A stretch of DNA of 64,000 nucleotides. It comes from Candidatus Woesearchaeota archaeon (lineage in GTDB: Archaea; Nanobdellota; Nanobdellia; Woesearchaeales; GW2011-AR15). Below are positions 21,001 to 49,461 of the stretch, one piece after another. Numbering within the stretch: the stretch's first letter is position 1; each line of letters starts with the position of its first letter. A program made the position numbers and the translations under genes. Location: assembly GCA_014729915.1 (NCBI GenBank), contig WJJD01000058.1, positions 18,293 to 82,292 on the forward strand. Direction: 5' to 3'. The notes under the pieces were generated by a model. That model saw nothing but the letters and a program-made list of their open reading frames with translations, had not been told where the DNA came from and searched no databases.

Positions 21001-24000
21001 TATAACCTGTGTTGATGATGCAGGAAATATTAATACAAGCGATACAAGAAATTTCACGATATCAGATCTTCCTCCAGAAGTCTTTTTATTGACTGAAGAT
21101 GATGTTTACCAGAGTTCAGATTCAATCTCTCTTGCATATAACGCAACTGACAACAATAATGTCACAGAATCAATGCTTTACATAAACGGGATTTTGAATG
21201 ATACAACTGATGATCCAATAGATAATATTGAACAGACATTTAATTTAACTAATTTAGCAGAGGGAATCTATAACTGGACAGTAAATGTCTCAGACATAAA
21301 TAATCTTACAGATATGGCATCAGAAAGATGGTTTACAGTTGATTACACAAAACCTTCAATAAACCTTACAGGACCAGAAAACGGTTCTTTGCTTAACATG
21401 AGCACAGTTTCTTTTAATTATACAGTCTTTGACAATCTTGATTCAGGATTGATCTGCAATATCACGATAAACAATACAGTAAGGGATTTAAATTACGCTG
21501 CTGCAAATAATACTCAGATCTTTAGAGATATAACATTGATTGACGGGGTCCATTACTGGAACGTAACCTGTGCGGATAATGCAGGAAACACAAATACAAG
21601 CATAACAGGAACTGTCCGGATAAGCTCTTCTCCGACAGTTGTTCTTGATTCTCCGGAACAAAATTACTCACAGAATACTCAAGACATGACCTTTTATTAC
21701 ACACCGACAGACAACACTAATTTTACAAGCTGTGATCTTTTAATAAATGATAAAGTCAACAAGACAAATTCAAGCATAACAAATGGTGCACAGAACCAAT
21801 TTTTTGTGCTAGGATTTTCTGAAGGAACATACAACTGGACTGTAAACTGTACAGATACAATAGGTCTTTTTTCTGCTGCATCTCCTAAAAGAGATTTTAC
21901 TATTGATTTGAAAAAACCATCTATAATACTCCACCATCCGCTTTTGAACAAGACATTTTATTCAAGAGATGTGATGTTTAATTATACTGTGGTTGATGAT
22001 TTTTCCGACACACTTAGCTGCAACCTTACAATAGACAGAGAAGTGAATCTTACAGGTATATCATCAATAAACAATACACCTGTCAACAGGACAATAACAA
22101 TTACAGACGATGGTCTCCATTGGTGGAACATAACATGTATTGATGATGCAGGAAACTCAAATACAAGCATTACAAGAAACTTCACAACCTTAAATCCTCC
22201 TGAAATAACTCTTGTTTCTCCTGAAGATAATACAATCCTTACAAACGGCACAGATATTGAATTTGAATACAGCCTGTCAGATTTGGATGGTATAGATAAC
22301 TCAAGCATTTTTATCAACGGAAAAAGAAACAAGACTGATTACAGTCCGAGCACGGAAATAAATAATTATTTTTATCTTAATTTTTCAGAACAGGGAATCT
22401 ATACATGGAATATCGAAGCATTTGATTTAGAGGGACTTGGAGCCAATGCAACACCAAGAACACTCACAATCGATTATTCTCCTCCTGTTGTTACCATAAA
22501 CTCTCCTAAGGAAGGGGATAATCTGTCATGGAACAATGCAACATTTAATTTTACAGTCACTGACAATCTTGATTCACAGCTTTTTTGCAACATAACAATA
22601 AATGATACAACAGAATATGAAAATATAACTGTCTCAAACAACAGCGATGTAATAAGATACAGGATTGTCAGGGATGGAAATTATAATTGGTCAGTAACAT
22701 GCATTGATCATGCAAACAACACAAACGAGTATAAATTGATAAATTTCTCAGTGTCTGCTCCCCCGGATATCACATTAAACTACCCTGTAGATAACTACAG
22801 GACTGGACAGGTAAATCTCACATTCAATTATACACCCGGAGATGCAATCGGATTAGAGAATTGTACATTAATTATCAACGGAGAAGATAATAAGACAGAT
22901 GAAGAAATAGACAAGAACATATACAACTATTTTGATGTGGATGAGTTTCCCGAGGGAGAATACAACTGGACAGTAAGGTGCTATGATAAGACTCCTGAAT
23001 TCAATGAATATACTGCTGCAGCTGAAAACTTTACAATTGATCTTACAGGACCTTCTATAAATATTCACAGTCCTTTAGAGAGTGATTCTATCAACACAAA
23101 CGATGTTTTCTTTAACTGGACACCAATTGATAATTACGGAATAGATTTAATATGCAATCTGACACTAGACGGAGAAGTGAATATTTCAGGAATTACAACT
23201 CAAAGCAGTTCTTTGACAAACAGGACAATTTATGATCTTGATTTCGGAGCACATAACTGGAGTGTGGCCTGCAGGGATGACCTTAATAATAAAAACACAA
23301 CAGAAACTTACAATTTTACAATAAACAATGCTGATCTTACATTAAATTCTTCACATATAACCTTTAATAATTCTGCACCTGAAGAAAATGAGAATATCAC
23401 AATCTATGCAAAAATATTTAATACAGGAGGATCAGATGCAGAAAACTTTACGGTCCAGTTCTTCCGGGGAAACTACACCTTAGGAAATCAGATAAACGAA
23501 AACAGGACATTAAGTCTTCTGATTGGTGAAAATAAGACTGTCAATACTACCTGGTCTGCAGGTGTACCAAATCCATATTATATTTTTGTTGTTGTTGATC
23601 CGCCCATAGCTTCAGAAGGAATCATTGCAGAGCTCAATGAATCCAACAATGTTGCTTTTAATACAGTTTATGTCGGAAGCTATAACACACTTTACGGAAA
23701 TATTTCAGGAGTTCTTAATATAAAGCAGAACCTTACAAACAGGACAGTATTTGAATGGTCGTTATTAAATTTTACAGGAAGCAACATATATGCGGTTGAT
23801 TATGACAGCAATATTGACTGGACAGATCTTCATGCTGTAAGCAGAAATACAACTCTGGATTATATTCAGGATGATTTTTTTGAGATAGATACCGCTCTTC
23901 AGATGGAAAACAACACAGACTCTTTAAACCAAAGCTACACTGCAAATTCACAGCCCAAATTAACCAGAAACTTTACAGTCTATTCCTCTTCGATTTCATA

Positions 24001-26497: not shown

Positions 26498-29400
26498 ATG
26501 GATATGAAAATATTAAAAAACATAGTTTGTGTCATTCTTATTATTTTATCAGCCGGCACTGTAATTTCTCAGATATCTTCGGATAGTGATATTATACAGC
26601 TGGAAAAACAAAAATTCAACCGTTTAGAAAAAATACAGATTACCGTAAAAAACCATTCAGAAAAAAGATTAGTGATTTTATCAGAAAACAATTTTTATTC
26701 AATAACAGATCTTAAAAAAACAAATACTTTTCTTCCAACAAACCCAGGAGATTATCAGATAAGGCTCCTGGATAAAAATCAGGAAATACTCTTTCAGAAA
26801 AAGTTTCAGGTATCAGGCAGAAAATCCGCTCATGAATCTTTCGGAACAATAAAAATCATAAATAAGGATAACAAAGAGATATTTTCTGACTATAGGTTTA
26901 TATCAAAAAACAAAATAATTTCCGAAAATGAATTAATTTCTCCCGGGAATTATGATATTGAGATAGAACCTGAGAATATTGATATTAAAAAAATTAAATT
27001 TAATAAATTTAATTTTACAGGCCGGTTTTATATAAAGCTTGACAAAATCAACATTAAAAAGATCAGCAATAAAAAAATTGTTAAAGCATTTGCGATTGAT
27101 TCAAACAACCTGAAATTTGAAGAAACAGAGATTACTGCACAAGCAAAGGGAACAGAACTCTGGAAATGCAGTGATTTTGATTTTTCAGGAGAGCTATGCA
27201 GCAGCAAATGGAAGAAAATAAAAAATATAATTCCGGGAAATGAATATTTTATAACTGTATATGACAAAACAGCAGGATTTGCTGAAACAGGTGTTGCAAC
27301 AGTTAACACTGAAAAACCAATTTATCATCCTGATGAGATTGTTAACATATATATGGTTGTACTTGATAATTCTGGATTCCTGGTGACAAATGCTCATTTG
27401 AATCTTGAGATTACCTCTCCAAAAAATCAAAAGTATAATCTGAAAACACCCGGGGATATTAAAGAGATTAAAAAAGGAATATATCGGGCTGAATTTTCTC
27501 AAATTTCTGTTCCGGGAAATTATATAATGAAAGTTATTGCAAAAGCAGAAAATACTGACAGCGATCTTATAAGTTATTTTACTGTAAGGGATTCTTATGA
27601 GTTTGATATCCTGAGAAATAATCCTTTGACAATTGATCCCTGGAAAGGTCCCTTTTTTTCATCAATTAGCATAAGAACATATGTTGATGCATCTTATTTT
27701 TCTTTCACAGAAATACTGCCCTCATCATTTACAATACATGATTCCGGAACCGGACTTGTCACAAATCATCCAGACCATAAAGAAATCACATGGACTGGCC
27801 TTGAAAATGATTCAGAAGTCTATTATACTGCAAATTCTCCTCTTAAGACACCTGAACTCTATGAGATAGGGCCTTCAAGAATCAATTACGATGATAAGAT
27901 ATTTACTGAAGCAAGACCATGGTATCTTGCTGTTGATCCTGTATTAAATATCAATGCATCCGGCTGCAGTAAACATTCAAATGCAAGCTCTTCAAATACA
28001 TTTGATGATGCCTGTTCTGATCCATATAATCTGAGCCTTGAAGATGGGAATTACCAGATTGCGGATGCACAGCAGGATGATTACTGCGGTATTGAGGCAG
28101 TCTATAATCAGGATCTTGAGGATTGTGCAAAAATCAACAGGGTCGATGTCTGCATAGACTGGTGGTTTACAGGGACAGTCCTGGAATGCCTTGGAGTGAA
28201 TTTTACAGGAACCGGGACATCAGGAACATGGTATACAAGCCAGCTGAGCAGCTGTCCTGAAGCTAACGGGGATATGATATGCTCTGATGAGACATCTTAT
28301 TTTGACTGGAACTGCAATTCATTTACAGGTGATAATGCAGCAATAAGAGCCCAGTTGAGAAGCCAGACAGACTCTTCCCACTGCATCTATGATGCAGTTT
28401 ATTTTAATATCAATTATTCTGCATATCCGAATATAACCGGCAATATAACAAACAACGGGCCTGTAATACAAAGACACAATATCACTTTTACCGGAAATTG
28501 CACTGATCTTGATCCCGGTGATAATTTCCGGCTCATCGTATGCAACTCTTCAACTTCTGAATGCAATGCAACAACAGCAGGAAATGATCTTATATGTAAA
28601 GGAGAATTTACAGATTCAAATTCCCCCAATTGCACGTACACTGCAGGATATGATGATATTGGTTTACATACAGGCGATATAGGTACCTGCTGTGATGCTG
28701 AGGGAAACTGCAATCCTGTTCTTCATGATGTTGAGGACTGGCAAATCTTATCAGGAACCCCGGATCTTACAACAGAAACACAATTTATTCATTTTTCAGA
28801 TGAATCTCCGTCTGAATCAGAAAACATAACAATAAATTCAACAATAAAAAATATCGGAAACGGGACAGTCTATAACATAACAATACAATTCTGGGATGAG
28901 CATCCTGACAGCAACGGGCTAAAAATTAACGGAAACAGGACAATAGATAAGATAATGGATAAAAAAAATAAGACAATAAATATAACATATAAATTCACAA
29001 GCCCGGGCCCTCATGAAATCTATGTATTAATTGATCCTGGAGAAGATATACATGAATCAAACGAAACAAATAATGAGATATATAAAGTTATCAATGTACC
29101 TTCCTGGCATATTTATTTTGGAAATTTATCCTCGCTGATTGTGCTCGGAGATGCAGAAAATAAGACAAAGATAACCTGGAATTCTGAAAATCCTTCGATA
29201 ATCTATATTGTTGAATCCGGAACTGATATAAACTGGGATAACCTGCAGGCACTTACAAGAAACACAACTGATGAATATGAGTTCAATGATTTTGAAGAAT
29301 TTGATGATATGCTAAACATGACATATTTTTCAGATTCTGTAAATAATACATTTACAATAAATTTCCAGCCCAAAAAAACAGTTTCTTTTGAAATTTATGA

Positions 29401-29650
29401 CAGGACAATAAATAATGTACCGATAATCAATTCAACAAATTCGTCAACCTTTGTTACAGGAGTTTTGTGGGATACAAATGACGGAAACACCCATTACAAC
29501 GGGACACAGGACATTGTATTTTTCACAAATTCAACAGAAAAAAAACAGGGAAAATACGGGACATATGATTATGAATTATCTGTACCCGCTCTTCTCAGAG
29601 AATACAAGCTAGGTTCTGATAAATTGACAATGTATGTTGAAATAAAGTAA
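26498..29650 (+). CDS. Secreted 1,050-aa surface protein with a signal peptide, a Cys-rich central region, a CARDB domain, and the same ~180-aa C-terminal tail as the giant protein
   Basis: N-terminus 'MDMKILKNIVCVILIILSAGTVISQ'. CARDB-like 'ENITINSTIKNIGNGTVYNITIQFWDEHP ... HEIYVLIDPGEDIHESNETNNE'. The tail '...VPIINSTNSSTFVTGVLWDTNDGNTHYNGTQDIVFFTN ... GTYDYELSVPALLREYKLGSDKLTMYVEIK' aligns with the giant's '...VPVINSTNNSNFMTGILWDKSDGNNEFNATQDLVFITE ... YDFEFKVPSNLKLYKQPDTTKVALYTELK'. Confidence 0.8.
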   Translation: MDMKILKNIVCVILIILSAGTVISQISSDSDIIQLEKQKFNRLEKIQITVKNHSEKRLVILSENNFYSITDLKKTNTFLPTNPGDYQIRLLDKNQEILFQKKFQVSGRKSAHESFGTIKIINKDNKEIFSDYRFISKNKIISENELISPGNYDIEIEPENIDIKKIKFNKFNFTGRFYIKLDKINIKKISNKKIVKAFAIDSNNLKFEETEITAQAKGTELWKCSDFDFSGELCSSKWKKIKNIIPGNEYFITVYDKTAGFAETGVATVNTEKPIYHPDEIVNIYMVVLDNSGFLVTNAHLNLEITSPKNQKYNLKTPGDIKEIKKGIYRAEFSQISVPGNYIMKVIAKAENTDSDLISYFTVRDSYEFDILRNNPLTIDPWKGPFFSSISIRTYVDASYFSFTEILPSSFTIHDSGTGLVTNHPDHKEITWTGLENDSEVYYTANSPLKTPELYEIGPSRINYDDKIFTEARPWYLAVDPVLNINASGCSKHSNASSSNTFDDACSDPYNLSLEDGNYQIADAQQDDYCGIEAVYNQDLEDCAKINRVDVCIDWWFTGTVLECLGVNFTGTGTSGTWYTSQLSSCPEANGDMICSDETSYFDWNCNSFTGDNAAIRAQLRSQTDSSHCIYDAVYFNINYSAYPNITGNITNNGPVIQRHNITFTGNCTDLDPGDNFRLIVCNSSTSECNATTAGNDLICKGEFTDSNSPNCTYTAGYDDIGLHTGDIGTCCDAEGNCNPVLHDVEDWQILSGTPDLTTETQFIHFSDESPSESENITINSTIKNIGNGTVYNITIQFWDEHPDSNGLKINGNRTIDKIMDKKNKTINITYKFTSPGPHEIYVLIDPGEDIHESNETNNEIYKVINVPSWHIYFGNLSSLIVLGDAENKTKITWNSENPSIIYIVESGTDINWDNLQALTRNTTDEYEFNDFEEFDDMLNMTYFSDSVNNTFTINFQPKKTVSFEIYDRTINNVPIINSTNSSTFVTGVLWDTNDGNTHYNGTQDIVFFTNSTEKKQGKYGTYDYELSVPALLREYKLGSDKLTMYVEIK

Positions 29651-30491: not shown

Positions 30492-31433
30492 GTGAAAATG
30501 GGATTTTTAAAAAATATCTGTCTGGACTTGAGTTTCCTTGATATCAGAAGACTCTTGAAAAAAAATAAAGAGTCTGAGGAAAAAACTGAAAATCAACAAA
30601 TAAAAGAACAGGTTTCTCAATCTGATGAACCAAGACAGCCTCCCCGACTACCAAGATCTCTATTTGACAGAAAATCAAATCAGGTTGCACCTCCTGAGAA
30701 AGCACCCTCTACTCTTCCCGAGATATCTTATGATTTTTTCAAGAAACAAGGAAAAAAGAAAAACAAACAATCTCTTAAATCAAAACCAATCCAAAAACAA
30801 ATAACAGAGGAAAAACCATTTGAAAAAATCCCTGTATCAGAGAATACATTTTTCAATAATCTTGTTTCAGATCTTAAAAAAGATTCTCTGGAATACAGGG
30901 ATACAAAAAATGTTATTGTTGATGATCTGTTTTCTTCAATGAAGGAATTTTGGCAAAACAAAAAATATGATAGAGGCAATAAACAAAAATTAAATTTTAT
31001 CAAAAAAGAAGTAGTTGACAGGATGCAGGAGCTTCATGAGCTTGAGGTCGAGTGGCAGAAATCCAAGATCACTCATGAAACTCTGGGAGATAACCTACAT
31101 AAAAAAGAATTGGAAATTGAATCAAAAATAAGAGAACTTAAAAAGATCTTTCAAAAACACCATGCTCATATGGAGGTTAAACAGGAACTTTTTTTTAATG
31201 TAAAAAACGGCATGACAATAAAATCACTTTCAGAACTTAACGACAAGCTCCCTGAAATACCTGATGAAGTATTTTTTTTTCATGTTAATGAAAACAAAAA
31301 TGATTTCTCTACATGGATAAATGATGTTTTTGGTCTCAAAAACCTGGCAAAAGACCTTTCTGGAGCAAAATCAAGAAATGAATTTTCAGAAATTCTTGAA
31401 AAACATGTTTCAGATGAGGATTTTTCCATTTAA
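30492..31433 (+). CDS. Soluble, charged coiled-coil protein ending in the conserved ~70-aa 'HVNE-KNDFS-W' C-terminal domain
   Basis: The C-terminus 'FFNVKNGMTIKSLSELNDKLPEIPDEVFFFHVNENKNDFSTWINDVFGLKNLAKDL' aligns with the C-termini of the products of 45052..47544 and 51965..54850. No TM helix is present. A TATA-like 'ctataaaaaaatatatatac' lies at about 30445-30464. Confidence 0.7.
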   Translation: MKMGFLKNICLDLSFLDIRRLLKKNKESEEKTENQQIKEQVSQSDEPRQPPRLPRSLFDRKSNQVAPPEKAPSTLPEISYDFFKKQGKKKNKQSLKSKPIQKQITEEKPFEKIPVSENTFFNNLVSDLKKDSLEYRDTKNVIVDDLFSSMKEFWQNKKYDRGNKQKLNFIKKEVVDRMQELHELEVEWQKSKITHETLGDNLHKKELEIESKIRELKKIFQKHHAHMEVKQELFFNVKNGMTIKSLSELNDKLPEIPDEVFFFHVNENKNDFSTWINDVFGLKNLAKDLSGAKSRNEFSEILEKHVSDEDFSI

Positions 31434-31709: not shown

Positions 31710-31910
31710 ATGGTAACCTTAACAGAGTTTAAAAAGGAGTGGGTAAAACTTGTTTTTAATGAGACCCCGACTAAAGTAGTTGTTAAGCAGGGATACCTCT
31801 ATGATGATGGAGAATTCTATAAAGTGATCGGAGACAGATCAGAAACGCTTGTGCGCAAAGATAAAGTGATCAGTATAACTAAAAAATCTTTTAAAGGTGA
31901 TACAAAATGA
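31710..31910 (+). CDS. Small hypothetical protein (66 aa), translationally coupled to the next gene through an ATGA overlap
   Basis: ORF 'MVTLTEFKKEWVKLVFNETPTKVVVKQGYLYDDGEFYKV...'. Its stop overlaps the start codon of 31907. Confidence 0.4.
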   Translation: MVTLTEFKKEWVKLVFNETPTKVVVKQGYLYDDGEFYKVIGDRSETLVRKDKVISITKKSFKGDTK

Positions 31911-32734
31911 TAAAAAAAGATAGATCAGGAATTAGAAAAATTTTAGCTGTATTTTCAGCATTCATCATACTATCAATATTTGCTTATGCAGCATCAGATG
32001 ATGAGCCAATGCCACTAGAATCTCTCAATGCAACTGAAAACGAAAGGATAAATGTATCTCAGATACCACTTAAATCACATGATGCAGAAGCTGGTAATTT
32101 AACAAAATTGGTCCTATTCGGTAGATCTCAGACAAAGCACTGGCAGGGTTATTACGGAGACATCACAGGTACAATAACATTGGATGATGCTCAGAACTGG
32201 ACATTATATGACTGGGACAATCCTGAGCCCAAAGGAGAGATATATGCAGTAGCAAACACTTCAGGTACAACACCCTCCTGGAGTACAGTCGAATGCTTTA
32301 ATTATACTCAGGAAACAGCAGGAGCAGCATGGGCAAACGGAAACACTACACTTGACAGGTGGGAGACATATTACAACATGACGTGGAATGACGTTGACGG
32401 GATCAATGAGACATTCAATGTGACAACTCATCTTGGATTTTCAGTCGGCTCATATACAATAGATGCTGATTCTTGCCCTGCAACATATACGTATGTAAGT
32501 GATGCATATCAGCAGGACAAATTCAGTGAAATATTGCTCCAGACTGATGAAGCCCAGCTGGTCTTTGCAACAATCATTGAAAACGATGATGAAGCAAATA
32601 ATACAGACCCTACAGGTTTTGATGATGTAGCGCATGACTTCCAGATGCTTGTAGCTGAAGACGGAACGAGTCTTAGTGCAGGTGAGATCAATGAGGATCC
32701 CACAACTTATTATTTTTACATAGATATAGAGTAA
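31907..32734 (+). CDS. Secreted ~250-aa protein, paralog family P1, with a signal peptide and a C-terminus of ...TYYFYIDIE
   Basis: Signal peptide 'MIKKDRSGIRKILAVFSAFIILSIFAYA'. The shared core 'HWQGYYGDITGTITLDDAQNWTLYDWDNPEPKGEIYAV ... STVECFNYT' aligns with the products of 32802 and 36006c. It has many N-x-S/T sequons. Confidence 0.75.
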   Translation: MIKKDRSGIRKILAVFSAFIILSIFAYAASDDEPMPLESLNATENERINVSQIPLKSHDAEAGNLTKLVLFGRSQTKHWQGYYGDITGTITLDDAQNWTLYDWDNPEPKGEIYAVANTSGTTPSWSTVECFNYTQETAGAAWANGNTTLDRWETYYNMTWNDVDGINETFNVTTHLGFSVGSYTIDADSCPATYTYVSDAYQQDKFSEILLQTDEAQLVFATIIENDDEANNTDPTGFDDVAHDFQMLVAEDGTSLSAGEINEDPTTYYFYIDIE

Positions 32735-32801
32735 AAGAAAAAGATTTTTTCTTTTTTTCTATGTAAAAAAGACAGTAAAGCTATAACAGAGATCAACCAA
32801 A

Positions 32802-33560
32802 ATGGAAAAAAAAATAAAACATCGGGATTTTCAGGCAATTCTTCTTGTTTTATTTTTATTGATAATTTATTTTTCAATTGTTATTGCAGCTGAACCTGAA
32901 GGAGGCACAATTGATTTTAAATCAAATTCAACAAAAAATATTACTCCTCCAAGTTCAAGAAATGACACAAAGGGAACAATTACAACTATTGTTATGACAG
33001 CCACACAACAAAACACAAAATGGAAAGCATATGTCGGAAATGTGACAGGAACTCTTGTCTTGAGAGATGCGGCAGATTACAGTATTTATGAATGGACATC
33101 AATCGGAGATCCGACAGGAGAAGTATATATAACAAGGAATGATTCAATAGAATGGTCAAATATCAAGTGTGCAAATTCAACAATTATTGACAGTGAGCAG
33201 GTCTTTTTAAATCATTCACCTACATCCCGGGATAATATCAACAATACTTTTTCAAATCAGGCCCATGATTCATTCTGGGTTGGTGACGTTACCGAAATTC
33301 AAAACAGCACCTGTTGGGGTACAGCAACCTGGATAAATGATTCTTCCCAGACAATTAATGAAGATTCACTGTTCCAGGAGATATTATTGTATGACAATAC
33401 AAATCTTATATATACAACCATAATAGAACAGAATCTCCAGGGATACAGAAATGATTCCGCAACAACTTATGATTTCCAGGCAATACTTCCTGATAATGCA
33501 TTACCCGGAAGCACCGGACAGGTAACATATTATTTTTATGTTGAGATCGAGTCAGGATAA
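32802..33560 (+). CDS. Secreted ~250-aa protein, paralog family P1, ending ...TYYFYVEIESG
   Basis: Signal peptide 'MEKKIKHRDFQAILLVLFLLIIYFSIVIAAEP'. Core 'KWKAYVGNVTGTLVLRDAADYSIYEWTSIGDPTGEVYITRNDSIEWSNIKCANSTII ... NLIYTTIIEQN'. Confidence 0.75.
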   Translation: MEKKIKHRDFQAILLVLFLLIIYFSIVIAAEPEGGTIDFKSNSTKNITPPSSRNDTKGTITTIVMTATQQNTKWKAYVGNVTGTLVLRDAADYSIYEWTSIGDPTGEVYITRNDSIEWSNIKCANSTIIDSEQVFLNHSPTSRDNINNTFSNQAHDSFWVGDVTEIQNSTCWGTATWINDSSQTINEDSLFQEILLYDNTNLIYTTIIEQNLQGYRNDSATTYDFQAILPDNALPGSTGQVTYYFYVEIESG

Positions 33561-33561
33561 A

Positions 33562-34506
33562 ATGAAAAAAAATAAATTCAATAAAAAAACTTTAATGCTT
33601 ACGATAGGTCTGCTTATCTGCTTTATCTTTTTATTCTCCTGGCTTTCCTTATTAAAGATTCCAAAAGCAACAAGTTATCTAGGGGCTGATATAAACCAGA
33701 CACTAAATACAACTGTAAATATTACAAATGCACAGCCAGAAGTAAGAACCGTTGCAATGGATTCTCCTATTGATCTTGAGGCATACGGAAACAGAACAGT
33801 GTACTGCAATACAACTGTTTTTGACTGGGATAATGACACCCTTACTGTAAATGCCAGCTTTTACATTGAGGGCCTTACAGATCCATTTTCCTCTGTAGAC
33901 AATAACAATAAGTATGATAATGTAACCTGCACCAGAACAAGTCCGCAGGACAGGGAAATGAATTATACCTGTACAGTTGACATGACTTATTACACTGACA
34001 ACTCTTCGCAATGGAGATGCAATGTAACAGCAAAGGATGATGATAATGCAACTCACACCAATGTTTCGGATTATGCAGTAATAAATCCCCTGACAGCAAT
34101 CTATGTTCCCGGAGTCCTTGATTTCGGGGAGCTTGCAGTAAACGATATATCTGATGATAAATTGGCAAATATAACAAATGCAGGGAATAGGAATATCAGC
34201 ATTTATGTTGAGGGATGGGGTGCAGAAAAAGGAGACGGGCTTGCTATGAACTGTTCTTATGGTTCAATTGATTCAAGCTATGAAAGATATAATCATACAC
34301 AGTCCGGATTGAGCTGGGAAACTGAATTAAAGGAAGTTACAAATGAATCTGTAAGGATTGATGGTTTTACAGTATTTCACAGGTTTGATGATTCTTCTTC
34401 CTCTGGGTCAACAAATTCAACCTACTGGAAATTAAAGATTCCGGCTTTTGCAGGTGGTATTTGCAATGGAAAAATATTATTCACTGCAGAGGATGACGGA
34501 ACCTGA
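33562..34506 (+). CDS. Secreted/anchored ~315-aa protein, paralog family P2, with a 'LLKIP' motif after the N-terminal hydrophobic segment and a C-terminus of ...GGICNGKILFTAEDDGT. I start it at 33562 rather than the track's 33538.
   Basis: The ATG at 33562 immediately follows the upstream stop at 33558-33560 and yields 'MKKNKFNKKTLMLTIGLLICFIFLFSWLSLLKIP'. The protein aligns over its full length with the product of 54872..55780 and with the C-terminal ~300 aa of the product of 56694..60077: 'NQTLNTTVNITNA.PEV', 'PLTAIY[VI]P', 'NITNAGN', 'YWKL[KE]IP'. Confidence 0.7.
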   Translation: MKKNKFNKKTLMLTIGLLICFIFLFSWLSLLKIPKATSYLGADINQTLNTTVNITNAQPEVRTVAMDSPIDLEAYGNRTVYCNTTVFDWDNDTLTVNASFYIEGLTDPFSSVDNNNKYDNVTCTRTSPQDREMNYTCTVDMTYYTDNSSQWRCNVTAKDDDNATHTNVSDYAVINPLTAIYVPGVLDFGELAVNDISDDKLANITNAGNRNISIYVEGWGAEKGDGLAMNCSYGSIDSSYERYNHTQSGLSWETELKEVTNESVRIDGFTVFHRFDDSSSSGSTNSTYWKLKIPAFAGGICNGKILFTAEDDGT

Positions 34507-34515
34507 TTTTTTGAA

Positions 34516-35997
34516 ATGAGAAAATTAATTCATAATTCTGTTTATTTTATTTTTATAATAATTTCGATTTTTATCCCTGTTCTGGATCTTTTTAATATCC
34601 TTCCTGGAGATATAAGTCTCTTATCTAAAATATTGAATTGGATTCTTATAGGAATATTGGTATATCATTTAAGTTTTATAAAAGTTCTTTTTGGAAAAAA
34701 ACAGTATAAAAAAATAAAAGATTTAAAAATAAAATATTATATTCTGGACATAGCAGTCCTCCTGAGTTTCTATATGTTTAATATTTCTGATATAATTTCT
34801 TTTGTCTTAAACCATAAAAAAGAGTTTTTCTATTTTTCCAGGTTTGCCGGAATTATCTCAGGAAATTATATTTTTATTGAGATGTTTTTTTTTAATATTG
34901 CTGCAATTTTCCTGATTTGTGTTTCACTGGTTCTTGGTTTTAGGGTGAAATTCGGAAAGGATTCATTGATGTCTCTTCTTCATGAGGATATTTTGCCAGG
35001 GGGATTTGATAAGAGATTGTTTAGAAGCCTTTCAGTTCTTTTTGTATTGTCAGGAATCTATATAACCTATTTCAGCCTTGTTTTAGAATGGTTCTCTCTT
35101 GTTCTTGATCTTCCTTTTACTCTTGCCGGAATTTTTTTAATAATTTATACATTCAAGAACAAGCATAAGATAAAAGAAAACCAGATAGTTGAAAAATTGA
35201 CTTTTTTTTCAGAATTTTTTGAAGAAAACCTATTGGTTTTTTTTCATAAAAAAGAAAAAATAATGTTTACTTTTTCAGGTCTTTTAGTTCTTCATCTTTT
35301 CACAGATATATTTAATTTTTTACTGCCCTTTCTTACAGGAACCAGGTATAACCTATATTCCGCAATTCTCCAGAAAAACTTCTGGGTAGGAGATTTTATT
35401 ATTAAAGATTTGTCCCTTACAAATATTTTATCTATATTCTGGATTTATTTTCTAATTCTTTTTTTTTTTATCTGTCTTCTGCTTTTCCCAATATATCTTT
35501 GGTACATCTCACTGAATAAAGAAAAACTGAAAATTTCAAGATGGGCTGTTTCACTTTTCTTTTCTTCATTAGTAGTTATCTTAATAAAATCAAACATATA
35601 TTTTGATAGTCTTGGAACAAAGCTCGGACTGACAGGTGTTTATTTTTATTTTTCAAACAAGGCATCATTTCTTCTGGGACACAATTATCTCTCAATACTC
35701 ACATTAACAATCTTTGTTATGATATTTACAATGATAAGGTATCATACTTTAAAAAAAATTATTGAAATTATTGTAATCATAGCAATATTAATAGTTTTTA
35801 GTGAATATACATTGAAATTTTTCAAAAGCATCTTATTTTTTTATTTTGAATCAATTAACACATTAATTAACAATAATATGTTTTTCATACTTGTTTTCAT
35901 AATAATATTTTTTTTATGCTCAGTCATCTTTTATCTTGGTTCATATTTTGTTTTTATAAGCCAGACCATATCAACAATTAAGAGATCATATTTTTAG
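34516..35997 (+). CDS. Polytopic integral membrane protein with about 12 TM helices and unknown function, embedded in the secreted-protein operon
   Basis: 493 aa with more than 10 hydrophobic 18-25-aa segments. No catalytic motif was recognised. Its start lies 10 nt after the preceding gene. Confidence 0.65.
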   Translation: MRKLIHNSVYFIFIIISIFIPVLDLFNILPGDISLLSKILNWILIGILVYHLSFIKVLFGKKQYKKIKDLKIKYYILDIAVLLSFYMFNISDIISFVLNHKKEFFYFSRFAGIISGNYIFIEMFFFNIAAIFLICVSLVLGFRVKFGKDSLMSLLHEDILPGGFDKRLFRSLSVLFVLSGIYITYFSLVLEWFSLVLDLPFTLAGIFLIIYTFKNKHKIKENQIVEKLTFFSEFFEENLLVFFHKKEKIMFTFSGLLVLHLFTDIFNFLLPFLTGTRYNLYSAILQKNFWVGDFIIKDLSLTNILSIFWIYFLILFFFICLLLFPIYLWYISLNKEKLKISRWAVSLFFSSLVVILIKSNIYFDSLGTKLGLTGVYFYFSNKASFLLGHNYLSILTLTIFVMIFTMIRYHTLKKIIEIIVIIAILIVFSEYTLKFFKSILFFYFESINTLINNNMFFILVFIIIFFLCSVIFYLGSYFVFISQTISTIKRSYF

Positions 35998-36005
35998 AAA
36001 AATAA

Positions 36006-36731
36006 TCACGCAAGCTCAATCCAGAAAAAATAAGGAGTAGACTGCTCTCCGGGAAGATCCTTTTCAGGTACAATCATCTGGAAATCATAGTTTTTGAAAT
36101 TAAAACCCTGCTCTTCATCATGCAGAAGAGTTGTATATATAAGGTTAGTTTTATCAGTCAAAAGCACTTCCTGGAACAATGCATCTTCTGTTACTGTCTG
36201 CTGAGTATTGTTGACCCAGGTAGCAGTAGATCTGCATGTGCTGTTTTCAATATAAGTTGTGCCAACATAAAATTCCTTGTGTATTTCATATTCAAACGTG
36301 TTGTTTATGCTGTCTTCATTAGAGAAAGTATGATTCATTGCAGTCTCCTCACCAGAGATTATTGTGTGATTTGCACATTCTATGCTGTTCCAGTCCACAG
36401 AATCATTTCTTGAAGCATAGACCTCTCCTGTGACAGTTGTCAATGACCAGTCATAGATAGTATAGTTATCTGCATCATCAAGAGTGAATTTTCCTGAAAT
36501 ATTACCTACATATGCTTTCCATCTGGGATTTTGGGTCTCGCCATAAAGTATGAGGGTTGTAAACGTCCCGCCCGAAGTATTTACAAATGATGCAGGTTCA
36601 GAGTCTTTAGTCTCTGAATTGCTGTACGGAATCATGGCACCTGTAGGCTCAATTGCATAAGAGATTCTGAATAAGATTGCAAAAAAGACCAGGATAAATC
36701 CTAATATCCGGATTAATCTCTTATTTTTCAT
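36006..36731 (-). CDS. Secreted ~240-aa protein, paralog family P1, ending ...PYFFWIELA
   Basis: Signal peptide 'MKNKRLIRILGFILVFFAILFRISYA'. Core 'RWKAYVGNISGKFTLDDADNYTIYDWSLTTVTGEVYASRNDSVDWNSIECANHTII ... NLIYTTLLHDE'. Confidence 0.75.
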   Translation of the reverse strand: MKNKRLIRILGFILVFFAILFRISYAIEPTGAMIPYSNSETKDSEPASFVNTSGGTFTTLILYGETQNPRWKAYVGNISGKFTLDDADNYTIYDWSLTTVTGEVYASRNDSVDWNSIECANHTIISGEETAMNHTFSNEDSINNTFEYEIHKEFYVGTTYIENSTCRSTATWVNNTQQTVTEDALFQEVLLTDKTNLIYTTLLHDEEQGFNFKNYDFQMIVPEKDLPGEQSTPYFFWIELA

Positions 36732-37242
36732 TTTTGTTCAGAGCTCTTTTGTATGTTGTCCAGATTGTCTGGTAATGTTTGCAGAGAAGATCTGCGATTT
36801 TATTGTAGGAGAGGGTCTTTTTTTCTTTAAGAAACAGAACAATATTTTCCAGCACACTGTAATTTCTTCTCTTAAAAATATCCAGGGGTATAGATATTTC
36901 AGAATCTTTAATTACAAGTTTTTTCAGGAATTTTTTTTTAGAATTAGAATAAGTGCTCCATATTGTCCTGTCATCCCTGTTAAGTTCCTGTGCTATCTCA
37001 TGGTAGCTCATATCTTTGTTCTCTTTTAGAAATTTTACTATTATCTCAAGAGAACTGAGGTTAGGGGTCTTAAAAACAGAGATTGGTACAGAAAGGGATT
37101 CTTTTTTTATGATCCCGAGAACCTCGTCTGTAGAGAGCTGATACTTATCTTTAAAATAAGCATCCACAACTTCTAATGCTTCTACAATCTTGTCATTTTT
37201 CAGTTTTTCTTTCAGAAAAACCCCTCTCCCTTGATGCATCAA
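36721..37242 (-). CDS. Putative transcriptional regulator with two tandem helix-turn-helix units
   Basis: Internal duplication 'SSLEIIVKFLKENKDMSYHEIAQELNRDDRTIWSTYSNSKKKF' and 'SVLENIVLFLKEKKTLSYNKIADLLCKHYQTIWTTYKRALNK', which resembles a sigma-70 region-4/LuxR-type HTH. It overlaps the downstream P1 gene by 11 nt. Confidence 0.45.
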   Translation of the reverse strand: MMHQGRGVFLKEKLKNDKIVEALEVVDAYFKDKYQLSTDEVLGIIKKESLSVPISVFKTPNLSSLEIIVKFLKENKDMSYHEIAQELNRDDRTIWSTYSNSKKKFLKKLVIKDSEISIPLDIFKRRNYSVLENIVLFLKEKKTLSYNKIADLLCKHYQTIWTTYKRALNKNEK

Positions 37243-37590: not shown

Positions 37591-39276
37591 ATGAAAAAAA
37601 AAGGTATTGAATCTGTGGAGCAGTGGATGTGGATTATTGCGGGCCTTGCAATAGCAACCCTAATTATTATTGGAGGGTACAGCATTATTTCTCAGTTAGT
37701 TGCAGACAAACAACTTAAAGAAACAATGGATACTTTCAATAATTTAAAAAACAGGATACAGGATCTGTGTTATAGAAATAAAAAATCACAGGAAATTCAC
37801 TACATGAAGATCAGCGACATTGTAAAAGAGATCTCTGTAAGAAACAGCACAACCATGAGGACAGGCAACGGAACAATGCTTTGTATTGAAATTGAAGACA
37901 AGAACCGGGAATGCCAGCAATTAAAAAACTGCGTATATGATCTTGTTCCTATAAGATTCCAAAAACAGCAAAACATATTTTCAACAATCCAGAAAGCGCT
38001 TGGCAGCTCAAGATCTGCAAAAATTGCTGTATTGATAACAAAAGGGACATTTGATAAGGTTTTTGTTACCTGGACAGAAGTGTTTTCAGAAGACCAGATC
38101 GGATCCGAAGTGAACAAAGAGATTTTCTCTAAAACAAAGCAATATGTAATTTCATATGAATACCACAAATTAATCAATGATATAAAAGAGATAATACAGG
38201 AAGTTTCAGAAATTAAGACAAGTTCAGTGAATAAAAACCTCGATTTTCCTACAGAAGTTGAAAAAATGTATTTTTTTAACCTTTCTGAAGAACTTAAAGA
38301 GCTTGACTATAAGGAAAATCTTAATCTTCATGAAAAAATAAAATCATATGATGAATCCAATTTATTTTTTATACAGGAAAGGGGAGCACTTAAATCCTAC
38401 CGGATTGAAGGATTGGATCTGCAGGAGCCGAATTATCTGTGCGTCAAAAATATCGACGGGAGGATGAGGCTTAATTTTGAGAGCACGGGAAATGGAGTAA
38501 ATATATTAACCCGGGATTCAGACTCAGACTGCACTTATCCTGTGATTGCAAGAGAAGTTGCAACTTATCTTGAAAAAGAGTCCTCAGAAGAATTTGAACA
38601 GGAGATGGAGTCATTAAAAGAATCAATAGAAAATGATTTTCCCGAAGTTTCAATTGATTATGAGCTGGATTATGATCCTGTTGAAGATAAGACCAAAGCA
38701 AGTATCAAATTCTCATCCTCACTGGATGCTGAGAATTTCAGATTAATTCATTTTATCCCGAAGTGTATGCTTCAGCTGGCTGATGAATTGTCTTTTAGTT
38801 ATGAAGGAAAGCAGCCGGAGGAGATAGAGATATTGAGGGAGGATCCATTGATAATGTGGCACTTTAATGAAATTGATCTTGAAAAAACTTCTATAAATTA
38901 TGAAAAGAGCGGCAAGGTGGATGAATTCTGCGAGGAACTTCTCACTAATTTTTTAGTATCTGTTAGGAGAAGGGATGGCTTTTTCGGAAAGCATAAAAAA
39001 CCAGGCATTTACAAATTCGATGATTCAGATTTTGATGAGGAAAAAAATTATGAAGATTTATATCCTGATGATTTGGACAATGATGGATTTCCGGATGAAT
39101 GGGAGGATATGTATGGGTATAACAAAAGGAATAAGAATGATCCCGGAGAATCTTCTGATCATGATAGTGACGGCGCAGATTCAAGAGCAGAATACAATCA
39201 TAACATGGATCCGAAAAATCCCGATACTGACGGAGATGGTATACTGGATGGAGCAGAGATTCAGGAAGAAGAATAG
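37591..39276 (+). CDS. Type IV pilin-like (class III signal peptide) protein of 561 aa with C-terminal thrombospondin type-3-like Ca-binding repeats
   Basis: N-terminus 'MKKKGIESVEQWMWIIAGLAIATLIIIGGY': basic residues, then Gly, then Glu at +5, then a 20-aa hydrophobic stretch. C-terminal D-x-D-x-D-G motifs: 'DDLDNDGFPDEWED ... DHDSDGADSRAEYNHNMDPKNPDTDGDGILDGAEIQ'. Confidence 0.5.
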   Translation: MKKKGIESVEQWMWIIAGLAIATLIIIGGYSIISQLVADKQLKETMDTFNNLKNRIQDLCYRNKKSQEIHYMKISDIVKEISVRNSTTMRTGNGTMLCIEIEDKNRECQQLKNCVYDLVPIRFQKQQNIFSTIQKALGSSRSAKIAVLITKGTFDKVFVTWTEVFSEDQIGSEVNKEIFSKTKQYVISYEYHKLINDIKEIIQEVSEIKTSSVNKNLDFPTEVEKMYFFNLSEELKELDYKENLNLHEKIKSYDESNLFFIQERGALKSYRIEGLDLQEPNYLCVKNIDGRMRLNFESTGNGVNILTRDSDSDCTYPVIAREVATYLEKESSEEFEQEMESLKESIENDFPEVSIDYELDYDPVEDKTKASIKFSSSLDAENFRLIHFIPKCMLQLADELSFSYEGKQPEEIEILREDPLIMWHFNEIDLEKTSINYEKSGKVDEFCEELLTNFLVSVRRRDGFFGKHKKPGIYKFDDSDFDEEKNYEDLYPDDLDNDGFPDEWEDMYGYNKRNKNDPGESSDHDSDGADSRAEYNHNMDPKNPDTDGDGILDGAEIQEEE

Positions 39277-39336: not shown

Positions 39337-39840
39337 ATGATATATGACAGGAATCAGTTTGTTTTTAATATTGTCCTTTCTCTATTGCTGATTATCATGA
39401 TACTTGTATGCGGATTTTTTGGATACAAATTCATACAAATCAAAAACCAGATGGAAGATATCAATACCAATCTTGAAGAGATTGAAAAAAACCAGCATTA
39501 TACAAATTATATACAGGCAAGTCATCAGGACATAAGATTTCAGTTGTCTCCTGAAGGATTTTTTATATATGGAGCTGATGATTACGGGACTTTGCAGGGA
39601 CCATCAATGCAGCCGTCCATCTTTGACAGCCATACTCTCATCCAGGTAAAATATACTGATCAGAATCTCTCAGAAGGCCAGATTGTAAGATACTATGACT
39701 CTGAAAGGACTCCTGTAATCCACAGGATAAGGGGAGTATACAATAACACAGTGAAAGTCCAGGGAGACAACCTGGACCAGGATGAGATTATTGAAAAGAA
39801 CCAGATAACTCATCTCATTCTCGGAGTACTTTTTACATAA
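39337..39840 (+). CDS. Signal peptidase I, S26 family, archaeal/eukaryal Sec11-type (Ser/His)
   Basis: N-terminal TM anchor 'FVFNIVLSLLLIIMILVCGFFGY'. Box B is 'GPSMQP' (Ser nucleophile). Box C-like is 'GQIVRY'. Box D is 'VIHRI' (His general base). Box E is 'GDNLDQDE'. Confidence 0.7.
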   Translation: MIYDRNQFVFNIVLSLLLIIMILVCGFFGYKFIQIKNQMEDINTNLEEIEKNQHYTNYIQASHQDIRFQLSPEGFFIYGADDYGTLQGPSMQPSIFDSHTLIQVKYTDQNLSEGQIVRYYDSERTPVIHRIRGVYNNTVKVQGDNLDQDEIIEKNQITHLILGVLFT

Positions 39841-40501: not shown

Positions 40502-42307
40502 TTGAGAAATAATAAAGTGAGGGGAAACTGTTTGAATTTAAAAAAATTAATAATAATTCTATTTATTTTTATTGCAATACCTTTTGTTTCAGGACTTGAA
40601 CCGGAGCAGATAATTTCAAACTCAGCTGACTGGCAGGATGTATATTCCACAATGCTTTATTCTGAATTGACAGGAAAATCATCCTATTTTTTAGTAAGTT
40701 CCAGGCATTCAACACTATTGATAGGTCAGTTGTCAAAATCACAAAAAAATACCTGGGTGATTAGTTCTGAAAAAAATCCTTATGTAGTAAGCTATAAACC
40801 TGTACTTGAATCAAAGGGATTTGCTGTTGAGGAATTTGAGTACTCAAATGTCAATCTTGAGATGGCCCGGAAGATAGAAAATATAACGAACTTCATAGTT
40901 CTGGATGATTCATACGGATATAATGCAATATCAGTAGCTCCTTATGCTGTTCTTACTGATTCTTATGTCTTGTTTGCCGACAGAAAAAATATCAACCTCA
41001 TCTCAAATTTCTTAAACACCCGGCAGGTAGAGAGTCTGCTTATTTACGGCCAGGTGGACAGGGAAGTTAAGGAAAGGTTGAGTGTTTTTTCTCCGGAGAC
41101 AATTAACAACGGAGACAGGTTTTTAGACAACCAGGCAATAGTTGATAAATACCAGGAAAAACACATTGAAGTCTATGGGGAGCCAAAAACCCAGGTCATC
41201 TTGACAAACGGGGAATTCATTGAGCAGGAAATTTTATCAGGAGTGGAGCCGGTTGTCTTTATCGGAAGAGCAAATGTGCCGGATCAGGTCCGTGAATATA
41301 TAAAAAACAGCGATATTGAGATAGGAATACTGATTGGAAATGAGCTTATCGGCTCAGCAACATTTATCAGAAGGCAGCTCGGAATAAGTGTTTTTGTAAA
41401 ATTTGCACAGAGTGCAAGAACACCTTCAGGCCCTATTTCTGCAGTTGAGGATCTTGACAGGTTTTATCTTCCAAGATACATTCTAAGCCTTGATTTATAC
41501 AGGGTGAGATACAACAAGATGAATAACCAGGTTTATGTTACATACCAGAATAATGTTGCCTTATCATCATACCTAAAGGGTACCATTACATTAAGATATG
41601 AAGGAGAAACTCAGACTGTTGGGGATAGTGAACCTGTTTTTATTGACAAGAACGAATATAAGACAATTGTGTATGACATTGATCCTGTAAGCGCAGAACA
41701 GATCCGGGCAGAAGTCTTTACTATTTATGGCGAAAGCAGGAAATCATTAGAGTATACATTAAGAGAGACAGTTGATGTTGAGACAGTAAATATCCTTGAT
41801 AATTCTGAAATAGAGATTGTAAATGTAAGGTATGACAGGAGAAAAGGAGAGTTTCTCATTGATATAAAAAACACAGGAAATGTTGATGTGTTTGTTGATC
41901 TGGAGTTAGTTGATATTCTGATAAATGATGAACTCAGGACATTTGGTCCTGAAGAAGTTTCTTTCATAGAAAAAGGAGAGGTTGAGACAATCATGGTGGA
42001 AGTTGAGATGGCTGAAGAGGATTTTGAGAACAACCCCAAAGTAAGGCTTACAGCTTATTACGGAGAAAGGGAAAGAAACCTTGTAAATGTGATTTCAGGC
42101 GAATATGATTATTCATTTACTGGTTTTGGTTATCTTACTGGCCGGCTCATAAAGGATATCGGCGGATCAGCAGTCACATTCGGTCCGATAATCATAATTC
42201 TTCTTCTTTTGATATTGATTATAGGCATGAAAAAGAAATGTCCCGACTGCAATGAAATCAACTCATTAAGAAGCAAAAAATGCAAAAGATGCGGCAGAGA
42301 GATCTGA
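40502..42307 (+). CDS. Secreted 601-aa protein with a signal peptide, a C-terminal TM helix and a short cytoplasmic 4-Cys zinc ribbon
   Basis: '...LIIILFIFIAIPFVSG' signal peptide. Three internal ~100-aa repeats. C-terminus 'GPIIIILLLLILIIGMKKKCPDCNEINSLRSKKCKRCGREI'. Confidence 0.6.
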   Translation: MRNNKVRGNCLNLKKLIIILFIFIAIPFVSGLEPEQIISNSADWQDVYSTMLYSELTGKSSYFLVSSRHSTLLIGQLSKSQKNTWVISSEKNPYVVSYKPVLESKGFAVEEFEYSNVNLEMARKIENITNFIVLDDSYGYNAISVAPYAVLTDSYVLFADRKNINLISNFLNTRQVESLLIYGQVDREVKERLSVFSPETINNGDRFLDNQAIVDKYQEKHIEVYGEPKTQVILTNGEFIEQEILSGVEPVVFIGRANVPDQVREYIKNSDIEIGILIGNELIGSATFIRRQLGISVFVKFAQSARTPSGPISAVEDLDRFYLPRYILSLDLYRVRYNKMNNQVYVTYQNNVALSSYLKGTITLRYEGETQTVGDSEPVFIDKNEYKTIVYDIDPVSAEQIRAEVFTIYGESRKSLEYTLRETVDVETVNILDNSEIEIVNVRYDRRKGEFLIDIKNTGNVDVFVDLELVDILINDELRTFGPEEVSFIEKGEVETIMVEVEMAEEDFENNPKVRLTAYYGERERNLVNVISGEYDYSFTGFGYLTGRLIKDIGGSAVTFGPIIIILLLLILIIGMKKKCPDCNEINSLRSKKCKRCGREI

Positions 42308-48269: not shown

Positions 48270-49253
48270 ATGAAACTCGCATTTGCGACCGGTCCTTATG
48301 CCCAGTCAGAGGATTCTTTATACATCTTTCTAAAAGAAGCTTTAAGCCGAAACCACAAGGTTTATCTCTTTATTTTGGATGATATTTATACAAAAGACAA
48401 TCATATTTTTGCTGACCTGATGCTGCTTTCGAAAAAAAGATTCGGCATAGACAATAATCAAAGATATAAATTTGATAAAAAAGTTCCCATGCAGCTGGGG
48501 TCAATGAACGCAGTTTTTTTAAAAAGAGATCCGCCTGTTCCTGCAGATAAACTTGAAATGATAAAAGATCTCGGCAAAAAAGTTTTTGTTGTAAATGATC
48601 CCGCAGGCATAATAAAATATAAAAGCAAGTCTTCTCTTGAAAGATTTTCAGAATTCATGCCTGAGACCTTCTTTTCAAAAGATGTCTCATTTCTTAAACA
48701 AAAAATCAATGAATTAAAAGATTGTGTACTAAAACAGGACTTCAGCTATGGTGGTCTTGGTATCCATCGTATATATGAGAAGAACAATCAATATTTTCAT
48801 AATCATCTGAAGATAAAAAATCAAAAAATACAGCTGACTCCTTTTCTTAAAAAACTGACATTAGACGGGACAAAAAAATTGACACTTGTCCGTTTCCTCA
48901 AAAATATAGACCAGGGAGATAAACGGATAATAATTCTTGACGGAAAAATTCTTGGTGCTATACTAAGAAAACCCTCAAAGGACTCATGGATATGTAATAT
49001 CACTTCAGGAGGGGTTGCGGGAAAAACAACAATTACAGAGGATGAACAAGAAATGATTAAAAAAATATCTCCTGTCCTTACGCAGGACGGAATACATATT
49101 GCAGGATTTGACACTCTGGTGGATGACAGCGGTAAAAGAGTATTATCAGAAATAAACACAACCAATGTTGGAGCGTTTCATATCCTGAACAAAACTTATA
49201 ATTTAAAACTAGAAAAGAAAATTATTGATTGGTTAGAACACGAATCTTTTTAA
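48270..49253 (+). CDS. Glutathione synthetase-like ATP-grasp ligase (GshB/RimK family)
   Basis: Alignable to E. coli GshB: 'FLKRDPPVPADKLEMIKDL' versus 'LMRKDPPFDTEF'. 'DGDKRIIILDGKILGAILRKPSKDSWICNITSGGVAGKTTITEDEQEMIKKISPVLTQDGIHIAGFDTLVDDSGKRVLSEINTTNVGAF' versus '[82 protein letters not shown]'. Confidence 0.7.
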   Translation: MKLAFATGPYAQSEDSLYIFLKEALSRNHKVYLFILDDIYTKDNHIFADLMLLSKKRFGIDNNQRYKFDKKVPMQLGSMNAVFLKRDPPVPADKLEMIKDLGKKVFVVNDPAGIIKYKSKSSLERFSEFMPETFFSKDVSFLKQKINELKDCVLKQDFSYGGLGIHRIYEKNNQYFHNHLKIKNQKIQLTPFLKKLTLDGTKKLTLVRFLKNIDQGDKRIIILDGKILGAILRKPSKDSWICNITSGGVAGKTTITEDEQEMIKKISPVLTQDGIHIAGFDTLVDDSGKRVLSEINTTNVGAFHILNKTYNLKLEKKIIDWLEHESF

Positions 49254-49461
49254 ATCTTATATTTTTCATTCTTTAACCCTCATTAAATAGAATACATTAA
49301 AATGAAGAGAAAAAAGAATGAAAAGTCAGTTCTGCTGCCTCGGATGGATTGTCTAAAAAATAATAATGAGAATATTATATATTCCTCCATAGATATATTT
49401 ATATATCAGTATAGTTTTTTATATACTAATATAAAGTAATGTAAATCAAAAGGTAAAGAAA

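Follow-up and report, generated by a model that had tools for sequence, protein, structure and literature searches.

Three small secreted proteins, which we call P1a, P1b, and P1c, are encoded in one locus of a 64,000-nucleotide stretch of DNA from a Candidatus Woesearchaeota archaeon (contig WJJD01000058.1, positions 18,293 to 82,292; hereafter the window), and profile comparisons identify them as homologs of the domain that ends two giant surface proteins encoded next door. From this relationship, we propose that the three P1 proteins are probably a cell-surface dock for the giant adhesins of the organism. DPANN archaea are tiny episymbionts whose genomes devote much of their coding capacity to giant surface proteins. 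To our knowledge, most of these proteins lack a membrane anchor, PGF-CTERM, or any other recognized sorting signal, and we know of no established mode by which they attach to the cell. A dock made of small proteins and a plug formed by the C-terminal domain of the giants provide a testable hypothesis for giant-protein anchoring.

In the window, the P1-like domain makes up the last ~190 residues of a 1050-residue CARDB/MG2 protein and of an 8049-residue open reading frame (ORF). The C-terminus of the 1050-residue protein aligned with the P1 family at an hhalign probability of 94.4% (E=9e-8) and was also detected by hmmsearch (E=1e-7), and the C-terminus of the 8049-residue ORF aligned at 92.6% (E=4.7e-7). 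The two giant-type domains share 42% identity and have W..Y.GN[IL]S, D[SG][IVL]N.[TS][FY], YD[FY][QE]..VP, and terminal Y.E[IL] motifs in common with P1, free and fused forms being only 22–29% identical. Fused copies lack the ~40-residue extension that follows the signal peptide in every free-standing P1, as they start at column ~72–86 of the P1 hidden Markov model (HMM), directly after a CARDB domain. Because each ends in a P1-like domain, neither the 1050-residue protein nor the 8049-residue ORF has a C-terminal anchor. The first in-frame start of the 8049-residue ORF is a TTG at position 89 with no signal peptide after it; the true start therefore probably lies before the window or in a different frame, and the gene could be even larger. 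The 752-, 561-, 601-, 830-, 961-, and 1127-residue proteins of the window were compared as controls and rejected as carriers of the domain (hhalign probability < 2%). An earlier note on this DNA, made from the sequence alone, overlooked both of these degenerate C-terminal domains, as well as the partner gene P2 and the lineage restriction of a gene for a protein with 12 transmembrane (TM) segments, which are taken up below.

We searched the giant-type profile exhaustively against 1.84 billion cluster representatives and obtained 772 matches, 724 of them at E<=1e-10, in proteins ranging from ~180-residue fragments to 7246 residues. Among the best 150 representatives, the domain reached the last residue of the protein in 149. 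The short matches are gene fragments that start inside a CARDB domain running directly into the P1-like core.

P1a, P1b, and P1c (identical to GF327_03645, GF327_03650, and GF327_03665, respectively) are, by sequence, true paralogs. BLASTP aligned P1a with P1c at 30% identity (E=1e-36) and P1b with P1c at 46% identity (E=1e-76), and an alignment of the three contains 52 invariant columns, which include the motifs W..Y.G, GE.Y, and C.N as well as the aromatic strand at the C-terminus. The earlier note had described three paralogous ORFs with a shared core and an aromatic C-terminal end, and both the ORF boundaries and the shared features held. It had also assigned Sec signal peptides rather than class III ones, which is backed by presequence statistics over 120 family members: the n-region carries a net positive charge in 95%, the h-region is uncharged with a median length of 17 residues, in 106 members there is an Ala, Gly, or Ser immediately before a conserved [EDQ]-P-x-G, and no class III signal motif is conserved across the 120. 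These properties support presequences of the Sec/signal peptidase I (SPase I) type. Sequons (N-x-S/T), likewise remarked on before, occur in P1 at 3.7–4.4 per 100 residues (11 in P1a) versus 1.1–1.7 expected from composition, a 2.5–3.6-fold excess, and are 4–10 times denser than in cytoplasmic control proteins of the same window (0.4–0.9 per 100 residues). The combined signatures support the assignment of P1a, P1b, and P1c as exported, SPase-I-type, heavily N-glycosylated surface subunits of one regulated locus, and the earlier idea of secreted surface subunits survives.

The P1 family numbers at least 749 members, every one of them from DPANN archaea and annotated as hypothetical, and nearly all of the 194 relatives in GTDB species genomes carry Woesearchaeota or Nanoarchaeota titles. 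Many metagenome-assembled genomes in GTDB that contain a P1 locus (L011, L012, L020, L025, L032, L035, and others) go under the title 'uncultured Methanosarcinales archaeon', and 'Euryarchaeota archaeon SM23-78' is the title of one; such names probably reflect placeholder or outdated taxonomy and not occurrence of the family outside DPANN. Pfam and NCBIfam hold no family for P1a, P1b, or P1c and gave only scattered chance matches among 120 relatives, PDB sequence searches with three profiles returned nothing significant, and literature searches found no published description. The family divides into two deep types, both present in every locus examined. The a-type, to which P1a belongs, has an AGN[VIL]T motif in the N-terminal extension, and the b/c-type, to which P1b and P1c belong, has GG.FTTL or KGTITT in the extension.

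We collected 78 P1 loci from GTDB species genomes and, in the 36 that were at least 15 kb long, counted the genes lying within 10 kb of P1. Woesearchaeota loci have a median of 4 P1 copies (range 1–7). Near P1, the long loci encode P2 (31/36), a regulator with a duplicated helix-turn-helix (HTH) domain (Hs; 30/36), an ArsR-like HTH_5 regulator (H5; 27/36), a DUF5752 protein (26/36), a giant-type domain (22/36), and a homolog of the 601-residue membrane protein (22/36). Three gene orders recur: GIANT>313>(66>)P1>P1>P2, Hs>P1, and H5>P1>P1>P2. The a-type gene comes first in 39 of 53 P1>P1>P2 triads, a slot filled by P1a orthologs, and a b-type gene is followed by an a-type gene in only 3. Hs and P1 are adjacent in 28 long loci, and the P1 that follows Hs is of the b/c-type in 59 of 64 cases.

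P2, like P1, is found both on its own and fused to the C-terminal end of a large surface protein. In the window, the fused copy ends a 1127-residue protein (gene 56694..60077) that matches Disaggr_repeat, and this module is complete except for the N-terminal helix. The tandem immunoglobulin (Ig)-like β-sandwich of P2 gave only generic matches. We rejected P2 as a relative of P1 (hhalign probability 4%), hence it is a separate family, and both unannotated families are candidates for domain databases. A second free-standing copy, P2b, lies directly downstream of a gene for a 961-residue Big_13 protein, and the same pair of a large protein and then P2 occurs in locus L005 (935 and then 312 residues).

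Features of the P1 locus and its surroundings. Positions are those of the window.
Feature	Position	Strand	Description
Giant-type P1-like core	23666..24238	+	Extreme C-terminus of the 8049-residue ORF (89..24238)
Giant-type P1-like core	29075..29650	+	Extreme C-terminus of the 1050-residue CARDB/MG2 protein (gene 26498..29650); lacks the extension and the two P1 cysteines
DUF5752 protein	30492..31433	+	313 residues; Pfam E=1.7e-5, 24.8 bits versus a cut-off of 23; between giant gene and P1a
66-residue ORF	31710..31910	+	Overlaps the P1a start; 70% identical ortholog in L001; 5/36 loci, sub-clade only
P1a	31907..32734	+	275 residues; ORF; predicted signal peptide; AGN[VIL]T-type extension motif; core insertion; P1 HMM E=1.6e-74
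P1b	32802..33560	+	252 residues; ORF; b-type; second gene of the triad; P1 HMM E=1e-100
P2	33538..34506	+	322-residue ORF (NCBI start 33562, 314 residues); N-terminal hydrophobic helix; two Ig-like β-sandwich domains; 19 sequons
12-TM protein	34516..35997	+	493 residues; ~12 hydrophobic segments; starts 9 nt after the upstream gene, same strand
P1c	36006..36731	-	241 residues; b/c-type; translationally coupled to the HTH gene upstream of it
Hs	36721..37242	-	Duplicated-HTH regulator, 173 residues; sigma-70 region-4-like; 11-nt overlap with the P1c start
Signal peptidase I	39337..39840	+	167 residues; ER/archaeal type (S26B; Sec11/SipW-like); S90 (SMQP), H129 (HR), GDN at 143; TM 5-36
601-residue protein	40502..42307	+	N-terminal signal/TM (8-35), large ectodomain, C-terminal TM (549-583), cytoplasmic zinc ribbon
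P2b	54872..55780	+	302 residues; GF327_03765; AQA|D cleavage site; P2 HMM E=5e-119
P2-like module	59232..60077	+	C-terminus of the 1127-residue disaggregatase-repeat protein; P2 HMM E=1.1e-71, positions 30-302

An AlphaFold2 monomer model of P1c, calculated with a 120-sequence alignment, had a mean predicted local distance difference test score (pLDDT) of 83.8 and a predicted template modeling score (pTM) of 0.72. Residues ~66–241, most with pLDDT > 90, form a β-rich core domain with two short helices. The extension is the sole poorly modeled part of the mature protein (residues 25–65; pLDDT below 50–58, and below 50 for residues 25–32 and 39–65), and it is conserved: Pro29, Gly55, and Thr58 are invariant, and segment 54–65 (pLDDT 40–58) has an entropy of 1.45 bits versus 1.65 bits for the P1 core. 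Fold comparison of the model gave no match to the subunit of Sulfolobus threads, to the TasA/AbpA jelly roll, or to any known pilin, and the P1 model does not show the incomplete Ig-like fold of chaperone-usher pilins. P1 is thus an undescribed family, and its confidently modeled core has no structural relative in the PDB and possibly a new fold.

In the mechanism that we favor, though with somewhat less than even confidence, P1a, P1b, P1c, and P2 would be surface subunits that assemble together and dock giant adhesins, perhaps through strand insertion. The three P1 proteins would be the free-standing, cargo-less subunits of a Woesearchaeota-specific extracellular assembly, exported by Sec, cut by SPase I just before [EDQ]-P-x-G, and heavily N-glycosylated. 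Once exported, these proteins would assemble with one another and with P2, the recurring unit being one a-type P1, one b-type P1, and P2. Giant adhesin-like proteins with CARDB/MG2 repeats and no anchor of their own would stay attached to the cell by occupying the place of a subunit in this assembly. The most likely joint would be a β-strand from the N-terminal extension of a free P1 inserted into the core of its neighbor, and the giant proteins, which have no extension, would sit at the distal end like FimH on type 1 pili. The two HTH regulators would control expression, and the 601-residue protein, with its TM segments and zinc ribbon, would be a candidate anchor or platform because it is the only conserved neighbor with a clear membrane anchor. 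We infer co-assembly, strand insertion, fiber geometry, and the anchoring role from the features described above. A strand-inserted chain is favored because the architecture resembles that of chaperone-usher pili with FimH and because the SPase I site, with an invariant mature N-terminus, resembles that of threads. The strictly C-terminal position of the domain would agree equally well with a type-V-like polarity, in which the donor strand is C-terminal.

Each of the architecturally closest known systems shares part of this organization. First, the locus resembles those of chaperone-usher (type 1/P) pili in having several paralogous genes for small secreted subunits (FimA/F/G in the pili) and a two-Ig-domain protein encoded alongside (P2 here). 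The 1050-residue protein and the 8049-residue ORF resemble FimH in joining cargo to a C-terminal subunit-like domain that lacks the extension, a likeness that is one of architecture and not of homology. Second, thread subunits of Sulfolobus acidocaldarius (Saci_0406/Saci_0405) are processed by SPase I, use an invariant mature N-terminus as the donor strand, and have a paralogous minor subunit encoded adjacently (PMC9715654). P1 likewise is archaeal, carries Sec and SPase I processing signals, is predicted to be heavily N-glycosylated, and has an invariant mature N-terminus, a neighboring gene for a paralogous subunit, and a locus free of dedicated ATPase machinery. By contrast, P1 has no detectable homology or fold match to the thread subunit, P1 loci contain 3–7 paralogs together with P2, a pair of regulators, and fused giant versions, features not reported for threads, and P1 occurs in DPANN archaea, whereas threads occur in Thermoproteota. 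Third, the TasA/TapA/SipW system of Bacillus and the AbpA/AbpB bundling pili of Pyrobaculum (PMC9245690) also encode a secreted β-rich subunit and then a secreted β-sandwich partner, with an HTH regulator in the locus and, in one sub-clade of P1 loci, an ER-type signal peptidase in the gene string, as with sipW. However, P1 matches neither Peptidase_M73 nor the jelly roll, its linkage to a signal peptidase is limited to 5/36 loci, and the giant proteins with C-terminal P1 domains have no counterpart in those systems. Finally, the C-terminal domains of the type IX secretion system (T9SS) and SLH domains also occupy the very C-termini of hundreds of secreted proteins that are frequently giant and otherwise unrelated, but the giant-type domain is ~190 residues long, has a different and unmatched fold, and is accompanied by abundant free paralogs beside the cargo genes, and no machinery resembling that of T9SS or sortase systems was seen in the P1 locus. 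By sequence and modeled fold, the P1 system falls outside those of these systems for which membership was assessed (TasA/AbpA, threads, and chaperone-usher pilins) and would consist of secreted surface subunits with the same fold as the anchoring end of adhesins.

Several observations weigh against a strand-inserted dock. First, the C-terminal strand of P1c (residues 235–240) is confidently modeled within the core, and this placement together with the pTM suggests that the P1 fold may be self-contained. Second, the fold is unlike that of any known pilin, and P1 polymerization and P1–P1 contacts are putative. Third, the giant-type domain is missing the two cysteines that do not vary among free P1 proteins, and it may therefore behave differently from free P1. 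Fourth, the fixed triad of a-type P1, b-type P1, and P2 points to a defined hetero-oligomer or a lattice no less than to a fiber. Finally, P1, P2, and the giant proteins all lack an obvious membrane anchor, and the anchor that we propose, the 601-residue protein, is found in only 22 of the 36 long loci and is almost free of sequons. A further-reaching version of the proposal, which we regard as rather unlikely, would place P1 in a novel structural class of archaeal surface polymers, as a pilin-like subunit whose fold has not been seen before and which polymerizes by strand insertion with no ATPase, chaperone, or usher, forming a universal socket on which Woesearchaeota, and perhaps other DPANN archaea, mount interchangeable giant adhesins (up to 7,000–8,000 residues) to seize host cells; the ~190-residue C-terminal P1-like domain would then be the anchoring signal that has long been sought for the giant surface proteins of DPANN archaea.

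The triad is also part of the evidence for an unlikely alternative in which P1a, P1b, and P2, with P1c in addition, form a two-dimensional envelope lattice, comparable to a surface layer (S-layer) or sheath-like coat, in which giant proteins ending in a P1-like or P2-like module replace ordinary subunits and thereby display their adhesive repeats. The one or two fixed triads in each locus, the existence of cargo-bearing fused versions of both P1 and P2, the compact-domain monomer model, and the near-ubiquity of the family in one order-level lineage are all consistent with such a coat, as is heavy glycosylation, which is also a property of archaeal S-layer proteins. However, two dedicated regulators and 3–7 divergent paralogs per locus are more in keeping with an appendage under regulation than with a coat made constitutively. 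Archaeal S-layer proteins are typically larger than ~23 kDa, a size at which the mature P1 subunits would be small for such a role. Moreover, neither P1 nor P2 has an evident membrane or envelope anchor, and a lattice leaves the conserved, unmodeled N-terminal extension unexplained.

Rather than a subunit, the P1 fold might be an envelope-binding module complete in itself, comparable to SLH or cell-wall-binding domains, that recognizes a glycan, lipid, or protein of the organism's own envelope or that of its host. It would then serve as the C-terminal anchor of the giants, and free P1 proteins would be independent binders (spacers, competitors, or host-recognition lectins) that do not assemble with them. 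A strictly C-terminal position on hundreds of different cargo proteins and a confident compact model that takes in the C-terminal strand agree with this idea, and the low identity between free and fused forms, together with their cysteine difference, would fit different binding partners. It is nonetheless improbable in our judgment, for it explains neither the ordered triads of a-type and b-type P1 with P2 beside giant genes in most loci nor an extension that is conserved in free P1 and missing from fused copies, and no similarity of P1 to known carbohydrate-binding or SLH folds was found.

The version put forward in the earlier note, in which P1 belongs to the known SPase-I-dependent donor-strand filaments (Sulfolobus threads and TasA/AbpA-like bundling pili) with a 12-TM assembly factor and a dedicated SPase I, could draw on the Sec/SPase-I presequences with their conserved mature N-terminus, on an SPase I gene 2.6 kb away that, in close relatives, runs in the same direction as the P1c ortholog, and on a β-sandwich protein encoded downstream, as with AbpB/TapA, but it is highly improbable, being refuted both for family membership, as none of 120 P1 proteins matched the TasA-family Peptidase_M73 (PF12389) even at E<=1 and the PDB gave no sequence or fold match, and for the 12-TM factor.

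The protein with ~12 hydrophobic segments is indeed encoded in the locus, as had been described, on the same strand as P2 and starting 9 nt after it; its proposed role as an accessory factor fell on co-occurrence. Only 2 homologs were found among 5.8 billion proteins, making a family of three members. Both homologs sit among housekeeping genes (TFIIB, ribosomal proteins, and lipid synthesis) on contigs in which the P1 HMM finds nothing, and the gene is present in none of the 78 P1 loci. In L001, the closest syntenic locus, an unrelated gene for a 581-residue protein and a HicAB pair take its place. For these reasons, we consider the 12-TM gene a lineage-specific insertion, and the 581-residue gene and HicAB toxin-antitoxin pair of L001 suggest that the position is an insertion hot spot. 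A 561-residue protein (37591..39276) with a TSP3-like acidic repeat at its C-terminus was also rejected as part of the system, as it is absent from all 78 loci and is another lineage-specific insert.

The nearby 167-residue peptidase was correctly recognized as an SPase I and has the Ser, His, and GDN boxes of one, but its status as a dedicated partner did not stand. Its matches to sigpep_I_arch and SipW are below threshold (TIGR02228, 22.4 bits versus a cut-off of 51.85; Pfam also below cut-off), and because the catalytic boxes are present at scores under the curated cut-offs, we take it to be a divergent SPase I member. SPase I genes occur near P1 in 5/36 long loci, all with one sub-clade arrangement, Hs>P1>SP>(97)>104>601. 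Judged from sequence and gene linkage, the peptidase may well process P1, yet it is not a conserved dedicated partner. The Hs-P1c pair (36006..37242, minus strand) is inverted in the window relative to the SP-97-104-601 string, whereas in close relatives (L001 and L010–L012) Hs>P1>SP>104>601 are all co-directional.

The dual-HTH regulator postulated in the earlier note was confirmed: the two HTH halves of Hs are 47% identical (E=2e-17), and Pfam HTH_23, Sigma70_r4_2, HTH_38, and HTH_11 all match above cut-off. The ArsR-like HTH_5 regulator of other loci has no counterpart in this window. The 601-residue protein is 45–65% identical to its homologs in 4 of the first 5 loci and has a weak DZR match. 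Despite a large, presumably extracellular domain, it contains a single sequon (0.2 per 100 residues), versus 3.7–6.1 per 100 residues in P1 and P2. The 313-residue DUF5752 protein has no hydrophobic or TM segment and is probably cytoplasmic, as judged from its sequence. DUF5752 is also found after the TM segments of two secreted proteins, one of 961 residues (51965..54850; residues 887–944) and one of 830 residues (45052..47544; residues 627–734), and this distribution suggests a cytoplasmic domain tied to the surface-protein system. Between the surface-protein genes, at 48270..51520, lies a cluster that encodes a glutathione-synthetase-like ATP-grasp protein, a class-II glutamine amidotransferase, and a GCS2-like glutamate-cysteine ligase.

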